From contig CBDDDG010000009.1 of NCBI GenBank assembly GCA_965226555.1, positions 1 through 22,880 on the forward strand: a DNA stretch of 22,880 nucleotides, in the 5' to 3' direction. Positions 4,333-22,880 of the stretch are shown here, piece by piece (within the stretch, counting starts at the first letter, position 1; each line of letters opens with the position of its first letter). A program made the position numbers and the translations under genes. Source of the stretch: Salinispira sp. GTDB taxonomy: Bacteria > Spirochaetota > Spirochaetia > DSM-27196 > Salinispiraceae. A model generated the notes under the pieces. It was not told where the DNA came from. It ran no database searches and saw nothing but the letters and a program-made list of their open reading frames with translations.

Positions 4333-4470
4333 AAGTCATCCGCCTCGCCCCAGTGTATACGAATACCTTTCGTTTCACACTGGGGAGGAGGGTCAGCTCA
4401 AGCATTAATTTTCCAGTTTATTTTCCAATTGATGTTTACATTCTTCTGTAATGTCGATAGTATTGTGCTA

Positions 4471-4497
4471 GAAAGTTTTGCAAAATGCAAAAGTTTC
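4471..4497. mobile_element. Minimal 27-bp palindromic element
   Basis: GAAAGTTTTGC-AAAAT-GCAAAAGTTTC, flanked by TGCTA/TACTA (5-bp near-duplication). Confidence 0.7.
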
Positions 4498-4533
4498 TAC
4501 TATACTGTGAATAAAACTTTACGGAGGTAATGT

Positions 4534-5991
4534 ATGCAAATTTTAAGCATTAACCGAAAAAACAGGAAGCCTGTCAGTACCTATGTGCTGAGCGGTTTTC
4601 TTATCATCCTGATATTGCTCGTCGCGGCATGTCCCATGCCGGATGCGCCGCCAGCAATGTTTGCACCAGCCCTTATGGCAGGAGACGGACAACTGACTGC
4701 CTCATGGGCTGAACTGGCCGCTATATGGAATGAGGTAGACAAAAAGGATGGCAAAAACGCAATTACCGCGTACAATCTGCGCTATGGTGAATTTGGTAGT
4801 GGAAACTGGACGGAAATTACCTCCGGTATTACCGGCGCAAGCCATACCATTACCGACCTGACAAACGGCGTCAGTTATGTTGTGCAGGTACGCGCCGTCA
4901 ACGCTGGGGGCGGAGGTACGTGGTCGGCATCTTCCACGGCACGCCCTATTGCGCCACCTGTGCCAACTGCCGCGCCGGGAACAATGGTTGCCCCAACCCT
5001 TTATGCGGGCACTGAGCGGCTCATTGCGACATGGACTGCGCCAACCGATAACGGCGGCAGCCCCATTACCGGGTACGAATTGCAATATCGCACAGGCGGC
5101 GGAGCATGGACGAAAATTAGCTCCGGTATTGCCGGCACAAGCCATACCATTACCGGTCTGACAAACAGCTCCCCCTACCAAGTACAGGTGCGCGCCGTCA
5201 ATGTAGTCGGAGCTGGAACTTGGTCTCCATTTGCAATAGGAAGGCCGCAAAGGACACAGACTCCTGCGGGTACGGCAAGGTTTGTAAGCCTTTCAGATGC
5301 TGTTAACGTTATTATTGCCAGTGAAAACCTCAGCATTTCTTTGACCACGGTAGAGCCTGGCACGTACGCGGTTGATGAATCGGGAAACATTACGATCACC
5401 CCCGCAACGACGCCCGGAACGGTCACCATTCCGACAGTTAATGAAAGTACCGGAATTGTTACGGTTACCGCAGGTACAACGGCAGGAACATATCTGGTAT
5501 ATGGCAAAACCGGAAGTGAAGACATACTCTTTACCGAATATCTCTATGTTACTGAGAGTCCAACAACTAACGCTGAACTGACCACAGCGGTAACTACGGC
5601 GATAGGAGACTACACAGATACCAATGACTCCGGAATCTGGGGTAATACTGCCGATCTCAACTACATTATTACCACGGCAGTAACGAATATGTCTGATATA
5701 TTCGCTGCACAAAGCGAATTCAATGGCGATATCTCCGGTTGGGATGTCAGTTCGGTAACGGATATGAGCAGTATGTTCATTGCCGCAACCTCGTTCAATG
5801 GCGATATCTCACTCTGGGATGTCAGCTCGGTAACGGATATGGGCAGTATGTTCTTTTCCGCAAGCGCATTCAATCAAAATCTTGAGGAGTGGGGGGAGCA
5901 TTGGACGCTTAATGCTAATGGCAAATATACCGGATCCAAAACAAATATGTTTCAGGGTTCCGGCGTGACAGCAACGCCGTCATGGTATTAG
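4534..5991 (+). CDS. Surface lipoprotein with 2 fibronectin type III domains and BspA-like/DUF285 repeats
   Basis: GGAGG RBS and lipobox LVAAC. FN3 motifs (ITAYNLRY...YVVQVRAVN). 25-aa repeats FNGDISGWDVSSVTDMSSMF. Confidence 0.88.
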   Translation: MQILSINRKNRKPVSTYVLSGFLIILILLVAACPMPDAPPAMFAPALMAGDGQLTASWAELAAIWNEVDKKDGKNAITAYNLRYGEFGSGNWTEITSGITGASHTITDLTNGVSYVVQVRAVNAGGGGTWSASSTARPIAPPVPTAAPGTMVAPTLYAGTERLIATWTAPTDNGGSPITGYELQYRTGGGAWTKISSGIAGTSHTITGLTNSSPYQVQVRAVNVVGAGTWSPFAIGRPQRTQTPAGTARFVSLSDAVNVIIASENLSISLTTVEPGTYAVDESGNITITPATTPGTVTIPTVNESTGIVTVTAGTTAGTYLVYGKTGSEDILFTEYLYVTESPTTNAELTTAVTTAIGDYTDTNDSGIWGNTADLNYIITTAVTNMSDIFAAQSEFNGDISGWDVSSVTDMSSMFIAATSFNGDISLWDVSSVTDMGSMFFSASAFNQNLEEWGEHWTLNANGKYTGSKTNMFQGSGVTATPSWY

Positions 5992-6110
5992 TTTCATAAC
6001 CCCCAGCGGCTATTGAAACGCGGCAATTCAACTCAGGCAGGCGCGGGGCTGGTCGGCGCTCCGCGCCTGCTCGCCCGAGCATCCGGCTCGCCATGCGACT
6101 GGATCAGGCT
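5991..6110 (+). repeat. Conserved 3' region downstream of lipoprotein genes, copy 1
   Basis: GTTTCATAAC..GGCTATTGAAAC followed by a GCAGGCGCGG/CCGCGCCTGC hairpin. Homologous to 7612-7715 and 18493-18645. Confidence 0.8.
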
Positions 6111-6114
6111 AATA

Positions 6115-6240
6115 GAAACTTTTGCATTGGAAAATTGTGCTTGCACAATTTCCAGTAGCAAAAGTTTCAAATTTGGAATGCTTTCTTTGTGCTTAGCATT
6201 CTCCTATTTTATAGAAAGTTTTGCATGTTGCAAAACTTTG
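6115..6240 (-). mobile_element. 126-bp three-hairpin palindromic element (MITE-like), reverse orientation
   Basis: Near-exact reverse complement of 21575-21700. Perfect 5-bp direct repeat TAATA at 6110-6114 and 6241-6245. Confidence 0.88.
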
Positions 6241-6693
6241 TAATATCTCAAAATAATAAAACTTTTTGAAAAACTTTCTCATTTTGTCATTCACCGTTCA
6301 TATTTACCCCGTCTATATAGTATGAGAAAAGATTATATCGGTATGGTACATGACAAAAGCTGGAAATATGTTTTCGGGAATGCTCAGATATTCTGGAACT
6401 TCATATATTCATACTTCAACAAAGACCTCGCGCGGAGCATTGTTCCCGGGAGCATGGAGAGCATCAACACAGAGTTTATTCACAAAGGTGAACGCAAACG
6501 TTCCCTCTCCGATGTCATTTATAAAACCACGTGCACTTTTAACGATAAAATGGGGGAACTGAAACCAATAGATGTGTATTTTATCATTGAGTTTCAGTCG
6601 ACAGTGGATAACACCATGCCAGGGAGAATATACACATACGCCCAGCGCTTATCCGAACGCATTTCCTCATCGGGGAAGAAGAAAACCGATAAT

Positions 6694-6789
6694 AAAGTTT
6701 TGCCTCAGGCAAAACTTTCTATACCTTGAGAGAATCAAGAGTATAGATGAGAGAATCCTTATTTGAAAATTTTGCAGAGCAAAATTTTC
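6694..6789 (+). mobile_element. 96-bp multi-hairpin element inside Rpn gene 1 (insertion A)
   Basis: AAAGTTTTGCC-TCA-GGCAAAACTTT ... TGAAAATTTTGC-AGA-GCAAAATTTTC. Two in-frame TGA codons. Confidence 0.85.
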
Positions 6790-6990
6790 AGTTACCGGAT
6801 AATCACCCTTGTCATATACACCTGCTCCGGAGCGCCAATGACAAATTCTGACCCCCGCAAAATAGATTTTTCATCATATCTTTACTTAGGCATTTGTATA
6901 TCCCCCTATTTTCAGATCAACGTTGAGAATTTCAGCAACAAGGAACTGATCTCCGCAGGCGGAGTCATTTCTGCAATAATGTACATCACC

Positions 6991-7086
6991 AAAGTTTTGC
7001 CTGTGGCAAAACTTTCTATATCTTGAGAGAATCAAAAATATAGATAAGAGAATCCTTATTGAAAAATTGTGCAGAGCACAATTTTC
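6991..7086 (+). mobile_element. 96-bp multi-hairpin element inside Rpn gene 1 (insertion B)
   Basis: Homologous to 6694-6789 with compensatory stem changes. In-frame TGA, TAA, TGA. Confidence 0.85.
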
Positions 7087-7275
7087 TGTGAAAATCTTGG
7101 AACAATAGAAGAATACACAGAAGAAACAATCGTCATCCTCAACAATATGATACAGAATAAGATGTCCGAAGATAAAGATGTATTATATGAATGGATAATA
7201 AAGAGGTTTGATGGTAAGATAAACAGGGATGAAACAAAAAAACTATTTCAGGAAAATCCTGAGGAGGTAAAACGT

Positions 7276-7488
7276 ATGTTGGTAGATCTTTTAGATAAGC
7301 CATGGCGGGCAGGACTTGAGCAGGGACTTGAGCAAGGGCAAGCTCAGCTCCGGCGTGAAATTGCTCGGACCCAGCGTAAGCAGGTATTCAAAATGCTCAG
7401 GGATGGTCTGCCAATAGACCGTATTCATGAGTACACCGAGCTCAGCGGGGATGAAATTCGGGCATTTCAGAAAAACGGTCAGGAATAA
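7276..7488 (+). CDS. Putative internally initiated small Rpn C-terminal protein (RpnS-like)
   Basis: GAGGAGGT at 7261-7268, then in-frame ATG at 7276: MLVDLLDKPWRAGLEQGLEQG...IHEYTELSGDEI. Confidence 0.65.
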   Translation: MLVDLLDKPWRAGLEQGLEQGQAQLRREIARTQRKQVFKMLRDGLPIDRIHEYTELSGDEIRAFQKNGQE

Positions 7489-7612
7489 CAGCGCTGGCAC
7501 ATATACCGGAAGCACAATACATATGTTCGTGGATTTCGGCGTGGTGACGAATACGGACGGGTCGGATACGAGTAAGCCTACGGGTGTGGGTGTTCCATCA
7601 TGGTATGAGTAA
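7484..7612 (+). pseudogene. Orphan 3' tail of a third FN3/DUF285 lipoprotein paralog
   Basis: Translates NNSAGTYTGSTIHMFVDFGV...GVPSWYE*, matching tails GKYTGSKTNMFQGSGV..PSWY and KYTGTTQDMFYGSGV..VPSWYE. Followed by the same 3' region. Confidence 0.78.
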
Positions 7613-7655
7613 TTTCATAGCCCGCAGCGGCTATTGAAACATTGCAATGCAACTC

Positions 7656-7692
7656 AGGCAGGCGCGGATTTTCCCCCGTGCCTGCCTTTTTT
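7656..7692 (+). terminator. Rho-independent terminator in conserved 3' region, copy 2
   Basis: AGGCAGGCGCGG...CCGTGCCTGCCT stem followed by a T-run. Confidence 0.7.
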
Positions 7693-16494: not shown

Positions 16495-16539
16495 ATCACC
16501 AATGAGACTGTTGCCGTTCAACAATCTCTATTACTGTGA

Positions 16540-16593
16540 GAAAGTTTTGCATTGGAAAATTGTGCTTGCACAATTTCCAGTAGCAAAAGTTTC
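16540..16593. mobile_element. 54-bp single-hairpin palindromic element
   Basis: GAAAGTTTTGC...GCAAAAGTTTC with perfect TGTGA duplication (16535-16539 and 16594-16598). The paralogous leader has a single TGTGA at 4506-4510 (empty site). Confidence 0.88.
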
Positions 16594-16621: not shown

Positions 16622-18493
16622 ATGCATAATTTACGCATTAACCGAAAAAACAGGAAGCCTGTCAGCACCTATGTGCTGAGCGGTTTTATCGTAATGCTGA
16701 CATTGCTCGTCGCTGCATGCCCCATGCTGACTGCGCCGCCTGCCATGTATGCGCCAACTCTCATAGAAGGAAGCGAACAGCTTACCGTATCGTGGATCGA
16801 TCCGACTACATGGAATTGGGGGGAGAACAACGCAGGAAACGATATTACTACATATCACTTGCGCTATCGTCACATGAGCAGCGAGAGCTGGACGGAGATT
16901 ACCTCCGGTATTATCGGCACAAGCCATACCATTACCGATCTGAAAAACGGTATGAATTACGCTGTGCAGGTGCGCGCCGTCAACGCGCAGGGCACCGGCG
17001 GCTGGTCGGCATCTGCCGCGGCAACACCTACTGCGTTCCTTGCCATGTCCGCGCCGTTATTAACGGTGGAAAACGGTACAATTACGGCTTCGTGGAACGC
17101 ACTTAACGGACACAACGTTACTGCCTACCACCTCCGCTATAGTGAAAAAGACAGCGGAAGCTGGACGGAGATTACCAAGGGTATAACCGGCACAAGCTAC
17201 CCCATTGTCGGACTGACAAACGGTACCAGCTATGATGTGCAGGTGCGCGCCGTCAACGCGCAGGGCACTGGCGGCTGGTCGGCATCGTCCACGGCAACTT
17301 TTGTTACTGCCCCTACTGCGCCGGGTACCATGATTGCTCCAACCTTTGAAGCAGGCACTGGGCGACTCATTGCCACATGGACTGCGCCGGAAAATGATGG
17401 CGGCAGCCCCATTACCGGGTATGAATTGCGATATCGCACAGATGATGGAGCATGGACGCGCATTAGCTCCGGCATTGCCTGCCGCGCACGTAGCGAGGGG
17501 CAGGCAGAAGTCTGTCATTTTTCCTTCTCATTTAATCCTTCTTACACAGGCCACACCATCACAGGCATGACAGACAGCGCCAACTACCAAATGCAGGTAC
17601 GCGCCATCAACGCGCAGGGCGTGAGCGAATGGTCTGCAACAGCAATGCTGCCGTTTGCAACGCAGCTTCCCGCGGGATCGCCAGCGTCCGTACCTTTGTC
17701 GGCTGATAGTAGTAATACCCTCATTGCCAATGAGGGTATAAGCCTTTTTGTGACCACGGTGGGAGTAAGCAATATCACGGTCGTTGATGGAGACATTACG
17801 GCGGTCACCTCCGTAGCTACGCCCGATGGGGTTACTATTCCGACTGTTGATTCGAGCAGCGGACTTATTACGGTTACGGTTAGCGCAGATACAACGGCAG
17901 GAACATATGTGGTATATGGTACTGGAACCGGAGATACCCTCCTCTTTGCCGAATATTTCTTTGTTACCGAGAATCCTACTACTAACGCTCAACTGAAAAC
18001 AGCGGTAACTGACGGGGTAACTACTTGGGGCAATACTGCCAACCTCAACTACATTGTTACCACGGCAGTAACGGATATGGACACTATCTTCATTAACAAC
18101 GCCTCCTTCAATGGCGATATCTCAGGCTGGGATGTCAGTTCGGTAACGAATATGCTCTCTATGTTCCAGCTAGCGGGGGCATTCAATCGCGATATTTCTG
18201 GATGGGATGTCAGCTCGGTAACGAATATGAGCTCTATGTTCCAGAACGCAAGTGCATTCAATAGCGATATTTCTGGATGGGATGTCAGCTCGGTAACGAC
18301 TATGAGCTATATGTTCGCTGTTGCAAGCGCATTCACTCAAAATCTTGAGGAGTGGAAGGATCATTGGACGCTCGAAACCGGCAACAAGCTTACTACCGCT
18401 GATCCTCCCAAATATACCGGAACCACACAGGATATGTTTTATGGTTCCGGCGTGAACGAAACGAATGGGAATGTGCCGTCATGGTATGAGTAG
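16622..18493 (+). CDS. Surface lipoprotein with 3 FN3 domains and BspA-like/DUF285 repeats (paralog of 4534-5991)
   Basis: Near-identical signal region INRKNRKPVSTYVLSGF..LVAAC. Three FN3 units and three DISGWDVSSVT repeats. Confidence 0.88.
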   Translation: MHNLRINRKNRKPVSTYVLSGFIVMLTLLVAACPMLTAPPAMYAPTLIEGSEQLTVSWIDPTTWNWGENNAGNDITTYHLRYRHMSSESWTEITSGIIGTSHTITDLKNGMNYAVQVRAVNAQGTGGWSASAAATPTAFLAMSAPLLTVENGTITASWNALNGHNVTAYHLRYSEKDSGSWTEITKGITGTSYPIVGLTNGTSYDVQVRAVNAQGTGGWSASSTATFVTAPTAPGTMIAPTFEAGTGRLIATWTAPENDGGSPITGYELRYRTDDGAWTRISSGIACRARSEGQAEVCHFSFSFNPSYTGHTITGMTDSANYQMQVRAINAQGVSEWSATAMLPFATQLPAGSPASVPLSADSSNTLIANEGISLFVTTVGVSNITVVDGDITAVTSVATPDGVTIPTVDSSSGLITVTVSADTTAGTYVVYGTGTGDTLLFAEYFFVTENPTTNAQLKTAVTDGVTTWGNTANLNYIVTTAVTDMDTIFINNASFNGDISGWDVSSVTNMLSMFQLAGAFNRDISGWDVSSVTNMSSMFQNASAFNSDISGWDVSSVTTMSYMFAVASAFTQNLEEWKDHWTLETGNKLTTADPPKYTGTTQDMFYGSGVNETNGNVPSWYE

Positions 18494-18536
18494 TTTCATA
18501 ACTCGCAGCGGCTATTGAAACACGGCAATTCAACTC

Positions 18537-18580
18537 AGGCAGGCGCGGGGCGCCGACCAGCCCCCGTGCCTGCCTTTTTT
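18537..18580 (+). terminator. Rho-independent terminator in conserved 3' region, copy 3
   Basis: AGGCAGGCGCGGGG-loop-CCCCGTGCCTGCCT followed by a T-run. Confidence 0.75.
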
Positions 18581-18649
18581 CGATAAAACGGCTGGTCGCT
18601 CTTGCCCCCATGTCGCCCGGCTCGCCCAAGCGTCTGGATTAGGATAATA

Positions 18650-18704
18650 TCTCATGTGGAATGCTTTCTTTGTGCTTAGCACAATTTTCAGGAGCAAAAC
18701 TTTG
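18650..18704 (-). mobile_element. Chimeric or deleted palindromic element
   Basis: GGAATGCTTTCTTTGTGCTTAGCA from the middle hairpin of the 126-bp form is fused to CAATTTTCAGGAGCAAAACTTTG. TAATA on both sides. Confidence 0.75.
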
Positions 18705-18779
18705 TAATATCCCAAAATAATAAAACTTTTTCAAAAACGTTCTCATTTTCACCATTCATATGTACCCCGTCTATATAGT

Positions 18780-18912
18780 ATGAGCGGAAAATATATCGGA
18801 ATGGTACACGCTGGAAATATGTTTTTGAAAATCCCCTGATATTCAGGGATTTCATATACTCATATTTCAACAAGGACCTCGCGGGGAGCATGGAGCGTAT
18901 CGACACAGAGCA
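18780..18912 (+). pseudogene. Decayed 5' fragment of Rpn gene 1 type, within the leader
   Basis: Aligns to 6322-6473 with a frameshifting deletion around GACAAAAGC. Repeated at 20530-20660 and 22299-22422. Confidence 0.75.
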
Positions 18913-19089
18913 TACCAGCCCCCATTCCCGACTCTCCGAAAAAAATTCACAAATTTTGCAAAATTCCTTCCAAAAACATAGGTAAAAATGACTTTTTACC
19001 CGTCACAGATTATAGAGGGGAGAATTCACCATGGGACCATGTCGCCATGGGAGCTCCCCTATTCAGAAAGAAACGTTCAGGAGGATTGT

Positions 19090-19854
19090 ATGATCGATTT
19101 CAAAGAAAAACCCGCCCCCGTTCCCTACGACCAAGGATACCGCTCTCTGCTGTTCCAACCCGCAATAATGCTCCAATTTCTGCAACGATTTGTCGGAGGC
19201 GCATGGACGAAAAAACTCCGAATCGAGGATATAACCATCGAAAACGGCACCTTTTTCATTGACCATGCGAAAACACGAATGGCCGACATTGTCTGCAAAA
19301 TAACGCAGAAGGATCACACGGGAGATGTTGCTATCTATGTGCTCCTTGAGCATCAGTCCGGCGTGGACAAAGACATGCCCTTCCGCATGTTGGAATACAC
19401 GCACCTTCTCTGCCGGAACATTCGCAGCTCCGGCACAATTCCCGATGACTGCGAGTTGGTATTTCTTCCCATTGTATTTTATAATGGAGAGCAAAGGTGG
19501 AAGGTGCCCGGGAATGTCAGAGATCGGAACACGCGGGAATTCCCGCAGTATCTTGCTCCTTTTCCCTACGATCTGATACGCGTGACCGATTATTCTGCGG
19601 AGCAGCTGCAGCAGCGGGGAAGAATGTTTGCGGCTGTTATGTACCTTGATCTGTACTCGAAAAATCTGCTGAATACGGATTGGGACATTCAGATAGTAGA
19701 GAAAGCGATAGCAGAAATGCTGAATGAGGAATCGCTGGAGCTGATAAAGGAATTTATCGGCGTGGTAGATTCGATGTTCGGAATTGTTATAGATTTAGAC
19801 ACGTTAATGAATCAATTAGAAGCAAAGTTTTGCCAGAGGCAAAACTTTCTATAA
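19090..19854 (+). CDS. Rpn/YhgA-family nuclease (unit 1), truncated by the 126-bp element
   Basis: CAGGAGG RBS. YDQGYRSL, RMADIVCK, YVLLEHQS.VDKDMPFRMLEY, LPIVFYNGEQRW. The last residues KFCQRQNFL are element-derived. Confidence 0.85.
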   Translation: MIDFKEKPAPVPYDQGYRSLLFQPAIMLQFLQRFVGGAWTKKLRIEDITIENGTFFIDHAKTRMADIVCKITQKDHTGDVAIYVLLEHQSGVDKDMPFRMLEYTHLLCRNIRSSGTIPDDCELVFLPIVFYNGEQRWKVPGNVRDRNTREFPQYLAPFPYDLIRVTDYSAEQLQQRGRMFAAVMYLDLYSKNLLNTDWDIQIVEKAIAEMLNEESLELIKEFIGVVDSMFGIVIDLDTLMNQLEAKFCQRQNFL

Positions 19855-19948
19855 AATTGGAGAATGCTAAGCACAAAGAAAGCATTCCAAATTTGAAACT
19901 TTTGCTACTGGAAATTGTGCTTGCACAATTTCCAGTAGCAAAAGTTTC
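19823..19948 (+). mobile_element. 126-bp three-hairpin element inside Rpn unit 1
   Basis: CAAAGTTTTGCC...GCAAAAGTTTC, flanked by AGAAG/AGAAA. Confidence 0.88.
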
Positions 19949-19988
19949 AGAAAGAACAAAAGAACCGAGAGGTAAGGAGGTAGCAAAA

Positions 19989-20345
19989 ATGTTCAGAATG
20001 AATGCGGAAACATTCAGAGCGCGCATTGCGGAGATGGGTCGGCAGGAAGGACTTCAGGCAGGACGACAGGAAGGACTTCAGACAGGATTGCAGACAGGTC
20101 GGCAGGAAGGCCGCGAAGAAGGACTTCAGACAGGATTGCAGACAGGTCGGCAGGAAGGACTGCGGACAGGTCGTGAAGAAGGACTTCAAAAGGGGCTACA
20201 GGCAGGCCGTGCTGAGGGGCATATTGAGGAGCGGAGAAAAAACGCCCGCAGTATGTTTTCCAAAGGATTTTCAGCCCATGACATTCAGGATGTTACCGGG
20301 CTGAGCGATGAGGAAATGCGGACATTGCGGAACGGGTCGCATTAA
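19989..20345 (+). CDS. Small Rpn C-terminal protein (RpnS-like), unit 1
   Basis: AAGGAGG at 19974-19980 and ATG at 19989. GRQEGLQT repeats, then an HTH-like end ARSMFSKGFSAHDIQDVTGLSDEEM. Confidence 0.75.
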   Translation: MFRMNAETFRARIAEMGRQEGLQAGRQEGLQTGLQTGRQEGREEGLQTGLQTGRQEGLRTGREEGLQKGLQAGRAEGHIEERRKNARSMFSKGFSAHDIQDVTGLSDEEMRTLRNGSH

Positions 20346-20400
20346 TTGGCGCTGCTCTGCCAAGCATCTGGCTCGCCCATGCGTCTGGATTAGGTCAATA

Positions 20401-20454
20401 AAAACTTTTGCATTGGAAAATTGCGCGTGCACAATTTCCAGTAGCAAAACTTTG
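20401..20454. mobile_element. 54-bp single-hairpin palindromic element at a unit boundary
   Basis: AAAACTTTTGCATTGGAAAATTG..CACAATTTCCAGTAGCAAAACTTTG, flanked by CAATA/TAATA. Confidence 0.8.
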
Positions 20455-20841
20455 TAATATCCCAAAATAATAAAACTTTTTGAAAAACTTTCTCATTTTC
20501 ACCGTTCATATTTTACCCGTCTATATGGTATGAGCAAAAAATATATCGGTATGGTACACGCTGGAAATATGTTTTCGGGAATGTTCAGATATTCAGGGAT
20601 TTCATATACTCATATTTCAACAAGGACCTCGCTCGGAGCATGGAGAGCATCAACACAGAGCATACCAAGCACCCCATTCCCGACTCTCCGAAAAAAACAC
20701 AACATTCTTTCAATTTCTTTTCAAAAACATAGTCAAAAATGACTTTTTACCCGTTATAGATGTAGGAGGAGAGAATTCACCATGGGACCATGTCGCCATG
20801 GGATCTCCCCTATTCAGAAAAAAACGTTCAGGAGGAATTAT

Positions 20842-21606
20842 ATGATCGATTTCAAAGAAAAACCCGCCCCCGTTCCCTACGACCAAGGCTACCGCTCCCT
20901 GCTGTTCCAACCCGCAATAATGCTCCAATTTCTTCAACGCTTTGTCGGAGGCGCATGGACGAAAAAACTGCGAACCGAGGACATAACCATTGAAAACGGT
21001 ACCTTTTTCATCGACCATGCGAAAACACGGATGGCCGACATTGTCTGCAAAATCAGAAGTCGGGATCACACGGGAGATGTTGTCATCTATGTGCTCCTTG
21101 AGCATCAGTCCGGCGTGGACAAAGACATGCCCCTTCGCATGTCGGAGTACACGAATCTGCTCTATCGGAACATTCACCGCTCTGGAGCAATTCCCGATGA
21201 CTGTGAATTGGTATTTCTTCCCATTGTGTTCTATAATGGAACTCGAAAATGGAAGGTGCCCGGGAACGTCAGAGAGCGGAACACGCGGGAATTCCCGCAG
21301 TATCTTGCCCCCTTTCCCTACGATCTTATTAGCGAGAACGATTATTCTGCGGAGCAGCTACAGCAGCGGGGAAGAATGTTTGCGGCTGTTATGTACCTTG
21401 ATCTGTACTCGAAAAATCTGCTGAATACGGATTGGGACATTCGGAAGGTAGAGAAAGCGATAGCAGAAATGCTGAATGAGGAATCGCTGGAGCTGATAGA
21501 GGAATTTATCGGCGTGATAGATTCGATGTTCGGAATTGTTATAGACTTAGACACGTTAATGAATCAATTAGAAGCAAAGTTTTGCCAGAGGCAAAACTTT
21601 CTATAA
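20842..21606 (+). CDS. Rpn/YhgA-family nuclease (unit 2), truncated by the 126-bp element
   Basis: Close paralog of 19090-19854 with a CAGGAGG RBS. Confidence 0.85.
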   Translation: MIDFKEKPAPVPYDQGYRSLLFQPAIMLQFLQRFVGGAWTKKLRTEDITIENGTFFIDHAKTRMADIVCKIRSRDHTGDVVIYVLLEHQSGVDKDMPLRMSEYTNLLYRNIHRSGAIPDDCELVFLPIVFYNGTRKWKVPGNVRERNTREFPQYLAPFPYDLISENDYSAEQLQQRGRMFAAVMYLDLYSKNLLNTDWDIRKVEKAIAEMLNEESLELIEEFIGVIDSMFGIVIDLDTLMNQLEAKFCQRQNFL

Positions 21607-21700
21607 AATTGGAGAATGCTAAGCACAAAGAAAGCATTCCAAATTTGAAACTTTTGCTACTGGAAATTGTGCTTGCACAATTTTCCAATGCAAAAGTTTC
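21575..21700 (+). mobile_element. 126-bp three-hairpin element inside Rpn unit 2
   Basis: Same site as in unit 1. The right arm of the third hairpin differs (TTTTCCAATGC vs TTTCCAGTAGC). Confidence 0.88.
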
Positions 21701-21740
21701 AGAAAGAACAAAAGAACCGAGAGGTAAGGAGGTAGCAAAA

Positions 21741-22097
21741 ATGTTCAGAATGAATGCGGAAACATTCAGAGCGCGCATTGCGGAAATGGGTCGGCAGGAA
21801 GGACTGCGAACAGGTCGCGAAGAAGGACTTCAGACAGGATTGCAGACAGGTCGGCAGGAAGGCCGCGAAGAAGGACTTCAGACAGGATTGCAGACAGGTC
21901 GGCAGGAAGGACTTCAGACAGGTCGTGAAGAAGGACTTCAAAAGGGGCTACAGGCAGGCCGCGCTGAGGGGCATATTGAAGAGCGGAGAAAAAACGCCCG
22001 CAGTATGTTTTCCAAAGGATTTTCAGCCCATGACATTCAGGATGTTACCGGGCTGAGCGATGAGGAAATGCGGACATTGCGGAACGGATCGCATTAA
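21741..22097 (+). CDS. Small Rpn C-terminal protein (RpnS-like), unit 2
   Basis: AAGGAGG RBS and ATG at 21741. Paralog of 19989-20345. Confidence 0.75.
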   Translation: MFRMNAETFRARIAEMGRQEGLRTGREEGLQTGLQTGRQEGREEGLQTGLQTGRQEGLQTGREEGLQKGLQAGRAEGHIEERRKNARSMFSKGFSAHDIQDVTGLSDEEMRTLRNGSH

Positions 22098-22168
22098 TTG
22101 GCGCTGCTCTGCCAAGCATCTGGCTCGCCCAAGCATCCGGCGCGCCATGCGTCTGGATCAGGTCAATA

Positions 22169-22223
22169 AAAACTTTTGCATTGGAAAATTGTGCAGAGCA
22201 CAATTTTCAGGAGCAAAACTTTG
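22169..22223. mobile_element. 55-bp single-hairpin palindromic element at a unit boundary
   Basis: AAAACTTTTGCATTGGAAAATTGTGC-AGA-GCACAATTTTCAGGAGCAAAACTTTG, flanked by CAATA/TAATA. Confidence 0.8.
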
Positions 22224-22576
22224 TAATATCCCAAAATAATAAAACTTTTTCAAAAACTTTCTCATTTTCACCGTTTATATTTTACCCGTCTATATGGTAT
22301 GAGCAAAAAATATATCGGTATGGTACACGCTGGAAATATGTTTTCGGGAATGCTCAGATATTCCGGGACTTCATATATTCATACTTCAACAAAGACCTCG
22401 CGCTGAGCATTGTTCCGGGAGCGTGCGTCAATACACCCTATAATACAGGGCGAATTCAACCATACGCTCACCCCCATTCCCGACTCCCCGAAAAAAACAC
22501 AACATTCTTTCAATTTCTTTTCAAAAACATAGTCAAAAATGACTTTTTACCCGTTATAGATGTAGGAGGAATGTGT

Positions 22577-22880
22577 ATGAAAAAATCATCCCACAGCACA
22601 GACCACATCCACGACATAGCCTTCAAGATCGCCTACTACAGAACCCCCCGGATGATTCCCGACCTACTGCGGCTGTTCTGTGAGGATACAACGCTTACCA
22701 AGCTGGACATGGATAAAATCCGCATTGAAACCCCCAGCTACATTGCGGGAAAAAAGAACCTTCACTGCGATCTCGTTGTCAGCGCTCCCTTCCTGTCAGA
22801 CCCCGACCGGAAGGCTCTATTCATTATTGAACATAAAAGCTACCTGCATAAACATGCTCTCACTCAAATCGATAACTATC
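22577..22880 (+). CDS. Divergent Rpn/YhgA-family nuclease, 5' part (runs off the window)
   Basis: AGGAGG RBS. Manual translation MKKSSHSTDHIHDIAFKIAYY...LHCDLVVS...LFIIEHKSY...LTQIDNY. Confidence 0.82.
   Translation, partial: MKKSSHSTDHIHDIAFKIAYYRTPRMIPDLLRLFCEDTTLTKLDMDKIRIETPSYIAGKKNLHCDLVVSAPFLSDPDRKALFIIEHKSYLHKHALTQIDNY

Follow-up and report, generated by a model that had tools for sequence, protein, structure and literature searches.

Two hairpin-rich inserts that interrupt a nuclease gene of the spirochaete Salinispira sp. are very probably 102-base copies of a genome-specific, hairpin-ended repeat family that likely moved as DNA into this member of the Rpn family and broke its reading frame with stop codons. 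The stretch analysed here, referred to as the window, comprises positions 1 to 22,880 (22,880 nucleotides, nt) of contig CBDDDG010000009.1 (C9) in the draft genome GCA_965226555.1 (G000), whose other contigs are likewise denoted C1, C8 and so on. This genome spans 2.98 Mb in 26 contigs with 47% G+C, and its quality scores are 93.5% completeness and 6.7% contamination. The interrupted gene lies at 6322-7488 on the + strand, and the cores of the two inserts, termed A and B, occupy 6694-6789 and 6991-7086.

Based on the map of open reading frames (ORFs), Pfam searches and comparison with intact paralogs, the host gene is a Rpn/YhgA-like (Transposase_31) gene split by the two inserts into three pieces that share one frame (6322-6729, 6763-7026 and 7069-7488). 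Its read-through translation from 6322 to 7488 is a continuous protein except for two stops within insert A (TGA at 6727-6729 and 6748-6750) and three within insert B (TGA at 7024-7026, TAA at 7045-7047 and TGA at 7060-7062); these in-frame stops were absent from the preliminary description of the window. The first piece matches PF04754 (Transposase_31, YhgA-like, Rpn family) with an E-value of 7e-07 and 29.5 bits, above the curated cut-off of 21, which places the gene in the Rpn/YhgA-like family; the second and third pieces, searched singly against Pfam, gave no matches. In a genome-wide tblastn search, the three pieces are contiguous in two paralogs (C8:5217-6173 and C1:27824-28759), and both insert junctions are uninterrupted in a further paralog (C17:7413-8276). 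With profiles of the nuclease (N) and C-terminal (C) domains built from the Rpn pieces of the window itself, insert A sits inside the nuclease domain and insert B at the boundary between the two domains, between position 181 of the N model and position 1 of the C model.

The two 96-nt cores are 89.6% identical and each begins at a codon boundary of the frame opening at 6322, and both fold into four hairpins, which confirms the earlier report of two in-frame, four-stem inserts of 96 bp. The accompanying statement that each insert measures exactly 32 codons applies to these cores, whereas the piece that was actually inserted is 102 nt (34 codons) long. Its boundaries were set by nucleotide alignment of ten paralogs, including copies with empty sites. 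Insert A, in sense orientation on the + strand, consists of TAAT, the 96-nt core and AG at 6690-6791 (or 6691-6792, owing to a 1-nt ambiguity), and the empty site ...CCGA/TTACCGG becomes ...CCGA-TAAT[96]AG-TTACCGG when filled. Insert B, also in sense orientation on the + strand, consists of ACC, the core and TGT at 6988-7089, converting ...ACATC/GAAAAT into ...ACATC-ACC[96]TGT-GAAAAT. At each of the two sites, filled paralogs are longer than empty ones by exactly 102 nt, and comparison with the empty paralogs revealed neither a target duplication nor a flanking direct repeat at either one, in agreement with the previously noted lack of a 5-bp direct repeat. Contigs from four public sequencing runs contain the joints 6689>6792 and 6987>7090, each skipping 102 nt; with sides of only 21-31 nt, these joints may come from empty-site paralogs and serve for insert length only. 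At the site of insert A, the cores carried by C9, C10, C16 and C23 show 100% identity. That a segment of exactly 102 nt is present in some paralogs and absent from others is consistent with precise insertion or excision of a DNA unit.

Both inserts belong to a large dispersed family. An iterated nhmmer search of G000 yielded 380 hits (340 non-overlapping, 186 spanning the full model), which merge into 274 composite loci with a total length of 29,886 nt. Class I, the type represented by inserts A and B, has a core of 96-97 nt and is present in 59 full copies in 27 flank contexts. Class II is about 122-125 nt long, with variants of 152-165 nt; it has its left hairpin in common with class I and ends in a nested double hairpin. 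Nesting also occurs in class I, whose copies are found inside other hairpin loops or between the ...AATATA and GATGAG... of another class I copy. An alignment of 27 class I copies, one per flank cluster or context (alignment A1), gave a consensus with the ends AAAGTTTTGC and GCACAATTTT, the latter having the reverse complement AAAATTGTGC, so that the two ends agree at 8 of 10 positions. Direct repeats flank a considerable part of class II: 17 of 49 copies match at six or more of seven flank positions (1.7% in a control using the flanks of different copies), and 15 of 49 match at all five of five (control 1.2%). In class I, exact direct repeats flanked at most 4 of 59 copies at any offset tried, giving no sign of a target duplication, and this explains the absence of the 5-bp repeat at inserts A and B. 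The direct repeats at class II elements genome-wide, for example at 19823-19948 of the window, are 5-8 bp long.

The family appears to be restricted to this genome. Among 31 genomes, comprising G000 and 30 relatives of the same family or order, the repeat was found in G000 only. Larger collections were also scanned with patterns drawn from the cores of both classes and from the stem-1 hairpin: one of two scans of species-representative genomes returned no match and the other a lone match in an unrelated metagenome-assembled genome, and two scans of metagenome contigs returned none. Within G000, the repeats lie mostly outside genes, where copies show a mild tendency to be co-oriented with the downstream gene (46 vs 26). 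A survey of gene interruptions, covering 65 repeat loci flanked on both sides by at least 80 open codons, found Rpn homology on both sides at 47 of them; the interrupted genes that are clearly not Rpn encode IS5-like transposases. Within this survey, no repeat copy was seen to interrupt a housekeeping gene; ORFs running through copies proved to be spurious 5' extensions or out-of-frame readings. The first type of IS5-like gene occurs in three filled versions, each with a class II element in sense orientation (C10:480606-480714, C10:540028-540136 and C26:9503-9611), and in three empty ones (C21:353556, C14:99575 and C1:58445). The presence of three filled copies indicates that the interrupted insertion sequence was itself multiplied or converted. 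The second type is represented by one filled version (class II, sense, C21:310756-310865) and one empty version.

The host family has undergone an extraordinary expansion in the same genome. Using the N and C profiles, 269 Rpn ORF fragments with an N domain and 176 with a C domain were detected in G000, forming 155 Rpn-like loci (some of them merged tandem arrays) that together take up 196 kb (6.6% of the genome). Of the 155, 44 consist of a single ORF with both domains and no repeat; 50 contain both domains in fragmented form together with repeats, 27 contain both in fragmented form without repeats, and 34 have one domain only. The Pfam family PF04754 gave 70 scored matches in G000 (the best 70 of 164 candidates) vs 0-6 in each of the 30 relatives. 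Of the 274 repeat loci, 100 lie inside Rpn loci and 146 within 300 nt of one. A role of the palindromes as operators upstream of rpn genes was considered and dropped as a general feature, given that a search of the 400 nt preceding 36 intact genes found a module, at varying distances, in only 13.

The fold of the inserts was examined in both copies and across the family. The stem-1 pattern occurs six times in the window compared with 0.00 expected from 100 shuffles, and the inserts with short flanks form four hairpins plus a short closing helix in both copies. Folding energies of the sense strand are -42.5 kcal/mol for A (z = -8.6) and -31.9 kcal/mol for B (z = -4.8), with none of 200 shuffled sequences as stable; the antisense strand folds equally well (-41.4 and -35.6 kcal/mol, respectively). 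Several details of the preliminary description were reproduced, namely the closing A-T pair of stem 3 in copy B, the recurrence of GAGAATC in two loops and the paired T-A vs G-C difference in stem 4. The reported C-G to T-A change in stem 2 is likewise visible between A and B, but the position is an unpaired C.A in 19 of 26 distinct rows. As a side observation, the covarying stem-4 pair falls in a TTG in copy A (6763) and a GTG in copy B (7069); TTG and GTG alike are start codons, and here they share the frame of the downstream piece.

Covariation was quantified on alignment A1 with dedicated counts and shuffles. Paired cells amount to 99.3% in helix 1, 96.9% in helix 4, 96.2% in helix 3 and 86.0% in helix 2. 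Overall, 94.3% of the cells are paired vs 92.5% in shuffles, 16 cells are changed on both sides, and the covariation score of the whole structure is 0.074 vs 0.044 in shuffles; none of 500 shuffles reached any of these three values. Six pairs show a double change, a number that was reached by 80 of 500 shuffles. On the family alignment, RNAalifold retains helices 1 and 4 plus 3 bp of helix 2. The proposal that the whole fold is maintained accordingly holds in part: paired changes preserve stems 1 and 4, while stems 2 and 3 are not maintained in the larger alignment, and only stems 1 and 4 are solidly maintained across the 27 independent copies. Mismatches in 36 distinct class I rows comprise 23 G.T (G.U in the sense RNA) vs 45 A.C (G.U in the antisense RNA), and no sense-strand excess of G.U is present in these rows. 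Simple hairpins built as AANTTNNNC-loop-GNNNAANTT number 845 genome-wide; 563 of them are fully complementary at the four variable pairs vs 172 expected for independent arms, and at least six self-complementary variants occur. The paired changes are thus real for both terminal palindromes, and they are a property of a family of DNA palindromes and not of the host gene; in a palindromic DNA repeat, such changes are no evidence of RNA function. Hairpin-templated repair, which the preliminary description had also mentioned, could be an alternative source of the covariation.

The relationship between the inserts and the surrounding coding DNA points to recent copying. At the commonest in-gene site, which is filled in 18 paralogs, nucleotide diversity is lowest in the element and in the 50 nt preceding it (0.00-0.05), amounts to 0.05-0.08 over roughly the 90 nt that follow the element, and rises to 0.14-0.24 at greater distances. 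Similarly, the flanks of insert A in C9, C10, C16 and C23 are near-identical for about 60 nt and then diverge. On the simplest reading, the insert and a short flank were likely copied recently among diverged paralogs by gene conversion. In 11 interrupted paralogs of the 18-copy site that have long upstream ORFs, dN/dS is 0.30 upstream (the nuclease domain) and 0.52 downstream, and intact genes show a median of 0.30 and a ratio of means of 0.47; with an element younger or more homogenised than its flanks, however, dN/dS of the interrupted paralogs is uninformative.

Taken as mobile DNA, the 102-nt unit would insert without a target duplication, and its palindromic ends, AAAGTTTTGCC..GGCAAAACTTT and GAAAATTGTGC..GCACAATTTTC, would probably be needed by the moving or repair machinery, a requirement that would explain the paired changes in the arms. 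The insert together with about 50-100 nt of flank would then likely be copied from one Rpn paralog to others by gene conversion. As a consequence for the host gene, the full-length nuclease (RpnL-like) would no longer be made, and a predicted RpnS-like product, with its own ribosome-binding site 3' of the inserts, could be. In the description of Zhong et al. 2023 (PMC10400941), rpn genes are genes-within-genes whose long product is a toxic nuclease blocked by RpnS, a short product of the C-terminal part that is made from an internal start and has four-residue repeats beginning 8-20 residues after that start. The predicted RpnS-like internal cistron of the window gene, as read from the sequence, extends over 7261-7488 (+ strand), with GAGGAGG at 7261-7267, an ATG at 7276 after a spacing of 8 nt, and a stop at 7486-7488. 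Thirteen residues past this internal Met, within the published range, a GLEQGLEQ repeat is encoded at 7312-7335 and is followed by a conserved tail; the Met itself corresponds to position 50 of the C-domain profile. The window gene thereby appears to retain an intact RpnS-like cistron while its long frame is broken twice, and production of RpnS is predicted.

Several findings weigh against such a history of DNA movement, in particular if insertion is taken to be neutral. A neutral gene-breaking insertion predicts no orientation bias, and in a wider count of 54 in-gene hits located between two Rpn-homologous segments, 37 are in sense orientation, representing 15 flank clusters at 11 positions of the Rpn protein, and 17 are antisense, representing five flank clusters. 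Four of these five (15 copies) are at one position, around N80, and the fifth (2 copies) is a low-scoring hit bridging two elements. Both IS5-like sites are also filled in sense orientation, and counted by position the bias is 13 vs 1 (two-sided binomial P about 0.002); the in-gene sense bias is real, although not absolute. The element is far more uniform than the surrounding coding DNA, which could reflect selection on the element. The searches of G000, at 93.5% completeness, for transposases of the types that are known to insert DNA with hairpin ends and leave no target duplication detected no Y1_Tnp (PF01797; the control was positive in 6 of 14 genomes), no TnpB (Cas12f1-like_TNB; control positive) and no IS110 (control positive); Y2_Tnp was not detected either, but this search was void, with no detection in any control genome. 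No conserved target motif was found among the left flanks, which differ from site to site (CCGA, CATC, AACGT, CACAA and ATATA). Finally, the public runs holding parts of the stretch are of DNA type or of unknown type and none is recorded as RNA, which leaves room for removal of the inserts at the RNA level.

The in-gene copies were also compared in position, codon phase and length. Many sites lie between the nuclease domain and the RpnS-like start, from N-model positions 181-221 up to C-model positions 1-47; sites at or after the domain boundary occupy C positions 1-47 with one exception at 79, a distribution that is biased against sites near the gene end by the need for 30-residue pieces in the detection. 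The preliminary description had implied a non-random codon phase among in-gene copies, and of six non-nested class I sites in sense orientation, four start at a codon boundary (phase 0), a proportion that is not significant (P about 0.1). The 18-paralog site has a 97-nt core and a downstream frame shifted by one, and at the site common to C14 and C23, 100 nt were added. In-gene copies are thus not constrained to lengths divisible by three. The single antisense in-gene site detected, around N80, is exemplified by the class I copy at C13:6255-6338; this copy and about 14 paralogous ones have a hairpin nested in the stem-1 loop and split the ALFI/IEHKSY region of the nuclease domain.

In comparison with known systems, the closest relatives of the repeat are the TD-2 motif and repeats of the MITE/PATE type. 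Miniature inverted-repeat transposable elements (MITEs), palindrome-associated transposable elements (PATEs, derived from IS200/IS605) and repetitive extragenic palindromic (REP) sequences with their RAYT partners are short repeats without genes of their own that reach high copy numbers, end in palindromes and insert into one another; target duplications are present in MITEs and absent in PATE and REP elements. The present family has the same general constitution, being short, gene-less, present in high copy number, bounded by palindromes and nested. Class I resembles PATE and REP elements in its hairpin ends and its lack of a target duplication, and class II resembles MITEs in having one. The terminal inverted repeats of class I (8 of 10 positions) are also like those of a classical MITE, from which class I differs by the missing target duplication. 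In contrast to PATE and REP elements, no Y1 HUH transposase or RAYT was found in G000 (93.5% complete), and the insertion sites have no conserved target of 4-5 nt. No parent insertion sequence bearing these ends was recognised, although no systematic search was made, and the IS5-like genes are targets and not parents. The strong preference for one gene family sets the repeat apart from all three. Rickettsia palindromic elements, reportedly described by Ogata et al. in 2000, are said to be inserted in protein genes with a frame-keeping length and to be translated within the protein. The inserts likewise are palindromic repeats within protein genes and are of frame-keeping length at sites A and B, but here the host frame is closed by two and three stops and the host genes are dispensable and multi-copy.

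Another parallel is provided by Ssn GIY-YIG nucleases, which are accompanied by NTS/SRM hairpin repeats in hundreds of copies in the same genome, as presented in Chenal et al. 2025 (PMC11893778). A hairpin repeat in hundreds of copies beside a nuclease family is also found in G000, but there the expanded nuclease, a putative partner of the repeat, is the PD-(D/E)XK protein Rpn. No small single-domain GIY-YIG gene was found in G000 with PF01541, whose two matches lie in ORFs of 601 and 304 residues.

The TD-2 motif was recovered through Rfam, where the inserts come near the gathering score of no family. Only TD-2 (RF03162) aligns to them, by way of its central hairpin GAGUUUUGCC..GGCAAAACUC, and it scores 21.0 and 20.8 bits where the gathering score is 48.7; the remaining matches are microRNA or small-RNA noise with E-values of 0.3-8. 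A genome-wide search of G000 gave no TD-2 match at E of 0.01 or below among the best 150 of 584 candidates scored. In the account of Weinberg et al. 2007 (PMC1950547), TD-1 and TD-2 are multi-copy, modular hairpin motifs of unknown function that occur only in Treponema denticola. As far as that account describes them, they resemble the present family as multi-copy, lineage-restricted, modular hairpins of spirochaetes that combine covariation with some broken pairs. The central hairpin of TD-2 contains the stem-1 core AGUUUUGC..GCAAAACU, and its last hairpin, GAAAAAUGUAC..GUACAUUUUUC, resembles stem 4; three of four TD-2 copies inspected have AGTTTTGC..GCAAAACT and GAAAAATGTAC..GTACATTTTTC hairpins, close to stems 1 and 4. 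On the other hand, TD-2 has its hairpins in another order and number, and the three inspected copies with the standard TD-2 layout (L033-L035; four inspected) lack GAGAATC loops. Among 151 sampled genomes of the same class, TD-2 was detected at E of 0.001 or below in 11, of which nine exceeded the cut-off, so that the motif is not confined to one species. One further spirochaete genome, G064, contains 76 TD-2 matches and 46 Rpn-like loci (TIGR01784). None of the 76 matches is inside a Rpn-like locus, in contrast to 100 of the 274 repeat loci in G000. TD-2 lies within 1 kb of 10 of the 46 TIGR01784 loci vs 3.3 expected (reached by 4 of 2000 random placements) and within 2 kb of 14 vs 5.6 expected (reached by 0 of 2000), but the null model ignores gene density, which makes this proximity a lead and not a result.

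These parallels raise the question of whether the hairpin repeats are DNA partners of the expanded Rpn (PD-(D/E)XK) nucleases, which would cut or move them in the way that Ssn nucleases act on NTS hairpins. Such a partnership is compatible with the preferred interpretation as mobile DNA, and it would explain why both expanded jointly in one genome, the repeat being absent from 30 relatives with 0-6 PF04754 matches each. Rpn is the only nuclease family expanded along with the repeat, the Rpn loci, which make up 6.6% of the genome, have 146 of the 274 repeat loci no further than 300 nt away, no Y1, TnpB or IS110 transposase was found in G000, TD-2 motifs in G064 are nearer to Rpn-like loci than expected, and a nuclease paired with a hairpin repeat has a precedent in the system presented by Chenal et al. 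2025 (PMC11893778). Against this, a module lies within 400 nt upstream of only 13 of 36 intact Rpn genes, at varying distances, and the enrichment is explicable by the insertion tolerance of dispensable multi-copy genes combined with gene conversion. Moreover, the null model for G064 placed motifs uniformly, coding DNA included, and so overstates the enrichment, and published work reports, in the sections considered here, no terminal repeats around rpn genes and a low cleavage specificity of RpnA (Zhong et al. 2023, PMC10400941; Kingston 2017). A partnership with Rpn is consequently regarded as rather unlikely. Little chance is also given to a broader scenario in which TD-2-like hairpins and Rpn nucleases would form a nuclease-and-hairpin partnership of spirochaetes that has run away in G000, with sense cassettes invading rpn genes, silencing the long toxin and sparing RpnS.

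The sense bias could also mean that the inserts are kept as gene-splitting cassettes, with translation stopping at the TGA of the element and restarting at the stem-4 GTG or TTG to give separate toxin and antitoxin-like products. Many sites do fall past the nuclease domain and ahead of the RpnS-like start (C-model position 50), the ORFs 6763-7026 and 7069-7488 open with the stem-4 TTG and GTG, between which the covarying pair switches, and the nuclease-domain dN/dS of 0.30 in 11 interrupted members is like that of intact genes. This possibility is nevertheless improbable: insert A lies inside the nuclease domain, where a functional split is unlikely, the codon phase is not significantly non-random (4 of 6), the candidate start is placed within a stable stem without a good ribosome-binding site, one antisense site is filled in about 15 paralogs, and the diversity valley suggests young inserts, for which dN/dS would be uninformative. 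Even less credence is given to a cis-acting structured RNA which splicing or processing would take out of the mRNA, or which the ribosome would skip, still yielding full-length protein. The four-stem fold with a closing helix that joins the coding ends, the paired changes in stems 1 and 4, the 34-codon length at both sites and the sense bias in genes can be cited for it, as can the proposal in Weinberg et al. 2007 (PMC1950547) that the related TD-2 motif may be a non-coding RNA. Opposed to these are the lack of a match to any ribozyme or intron model in Rfam (best match 21 bits vs a gathering score of 48.7), the equal folding of the antisense strand, the absence of a sense-strand G.U excess, the failure of stems 2 and 3 to be maintained, and the 97-nt cores and 100-nt inserts in genes. 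Copies were found in Rpn and IS5-like genes only, and in no essential gene. Programmed translational bypass of the T4 gene 60 type relies on matched take-off and landing codons with a stop directly after take-off; the codons here are unmatched (GAT/AAT...AGT/TAC at A, ATC/ACC...TGT/GAA at B), and the first stop comes 12 codons into the core. The suggestion in the preliminary description that the inserts act as a splicing or bypass substrate thus appears unsupported, judging from a dispersed repeat that is mostly outside genes and folds equally well on both strands.

Further elements of the repeat family and related features surround the host gene. Upstream of it, a class II element of about 125 nt lies on the - strand at 6115-6240, as a 126-nt arm that is 95% complementary to 21575-21700 and 91% complementary to 19823-19948. 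The latter two are class II elements on the + strand in an array of three tandem Rpn paralogs that recur about every 1750 nt (18600-22880), each with a class II element between the ORFs of its two domains. They were recognised by repeat match and by the Pfam matches of the neighbouring nuclease-domain ORFs: 19823-19948 lies between the nuclease-domain ORF at 18988-19854 and a C-terminal-domain ORF in another frame, and 21575-21700 is at the same position in the next tandem paralog, following the ORF at 20782-21606. The C-terminal ORFs of the array contain 12-nt (four-residue) repeats at 20030-20230 and 21794-21982. Copies of about 100 nt of the start of the 6322 gene, 76-92% identical to it, are located upstream of each array gene in a different frame (18801-18900, 20551-20650 and 22320-22419), and each is followed by a further repeat of about 100 nt (18921-19019, 20672-20770 and 22472-22570); the gene-start copies resemble recombination scars or another kind of insert. 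A palindromic repeat of a different, G+C-rich type is present at 5959-6070, 7580-7667 and 18461-18564, just past genes with fibronectin type III (FN3) and DUF285 domains and past the Rpn gene, and a related G+C-rich piece is found inside Rpn paralogs on C14, C16 and C23 and inside the 152-165-nt class II variants. The two paralogous genes at 4534-5991 and 16622-18493 encode fibronectin type III repeats together with DUF285, and each is preceded by a hairpin module (4469-4499 and 16525-16593).

In terms of novelty, a small palindromic mobile repeat that breaks genes is an ordinary kind of event, which is here well documented. Its setting is extreme: a single 3-Mb genome contains 155 Rpn-like loci, compared with 0-6 Pfam matches in each of 30 relatives, and the repeat occurs in that same genome alone. 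The in-gene copies, predominantly in sense orientation, spare the RpnS-like start. The TD-2 motif of Treponema, which is unexplained, has the same hairpin cores, and its copies lie near Rpn-like genes above expectation. If the link to Rpn is true, these hairpins would represent a DNA substrate for a nuclease family that lacks a known natural target.

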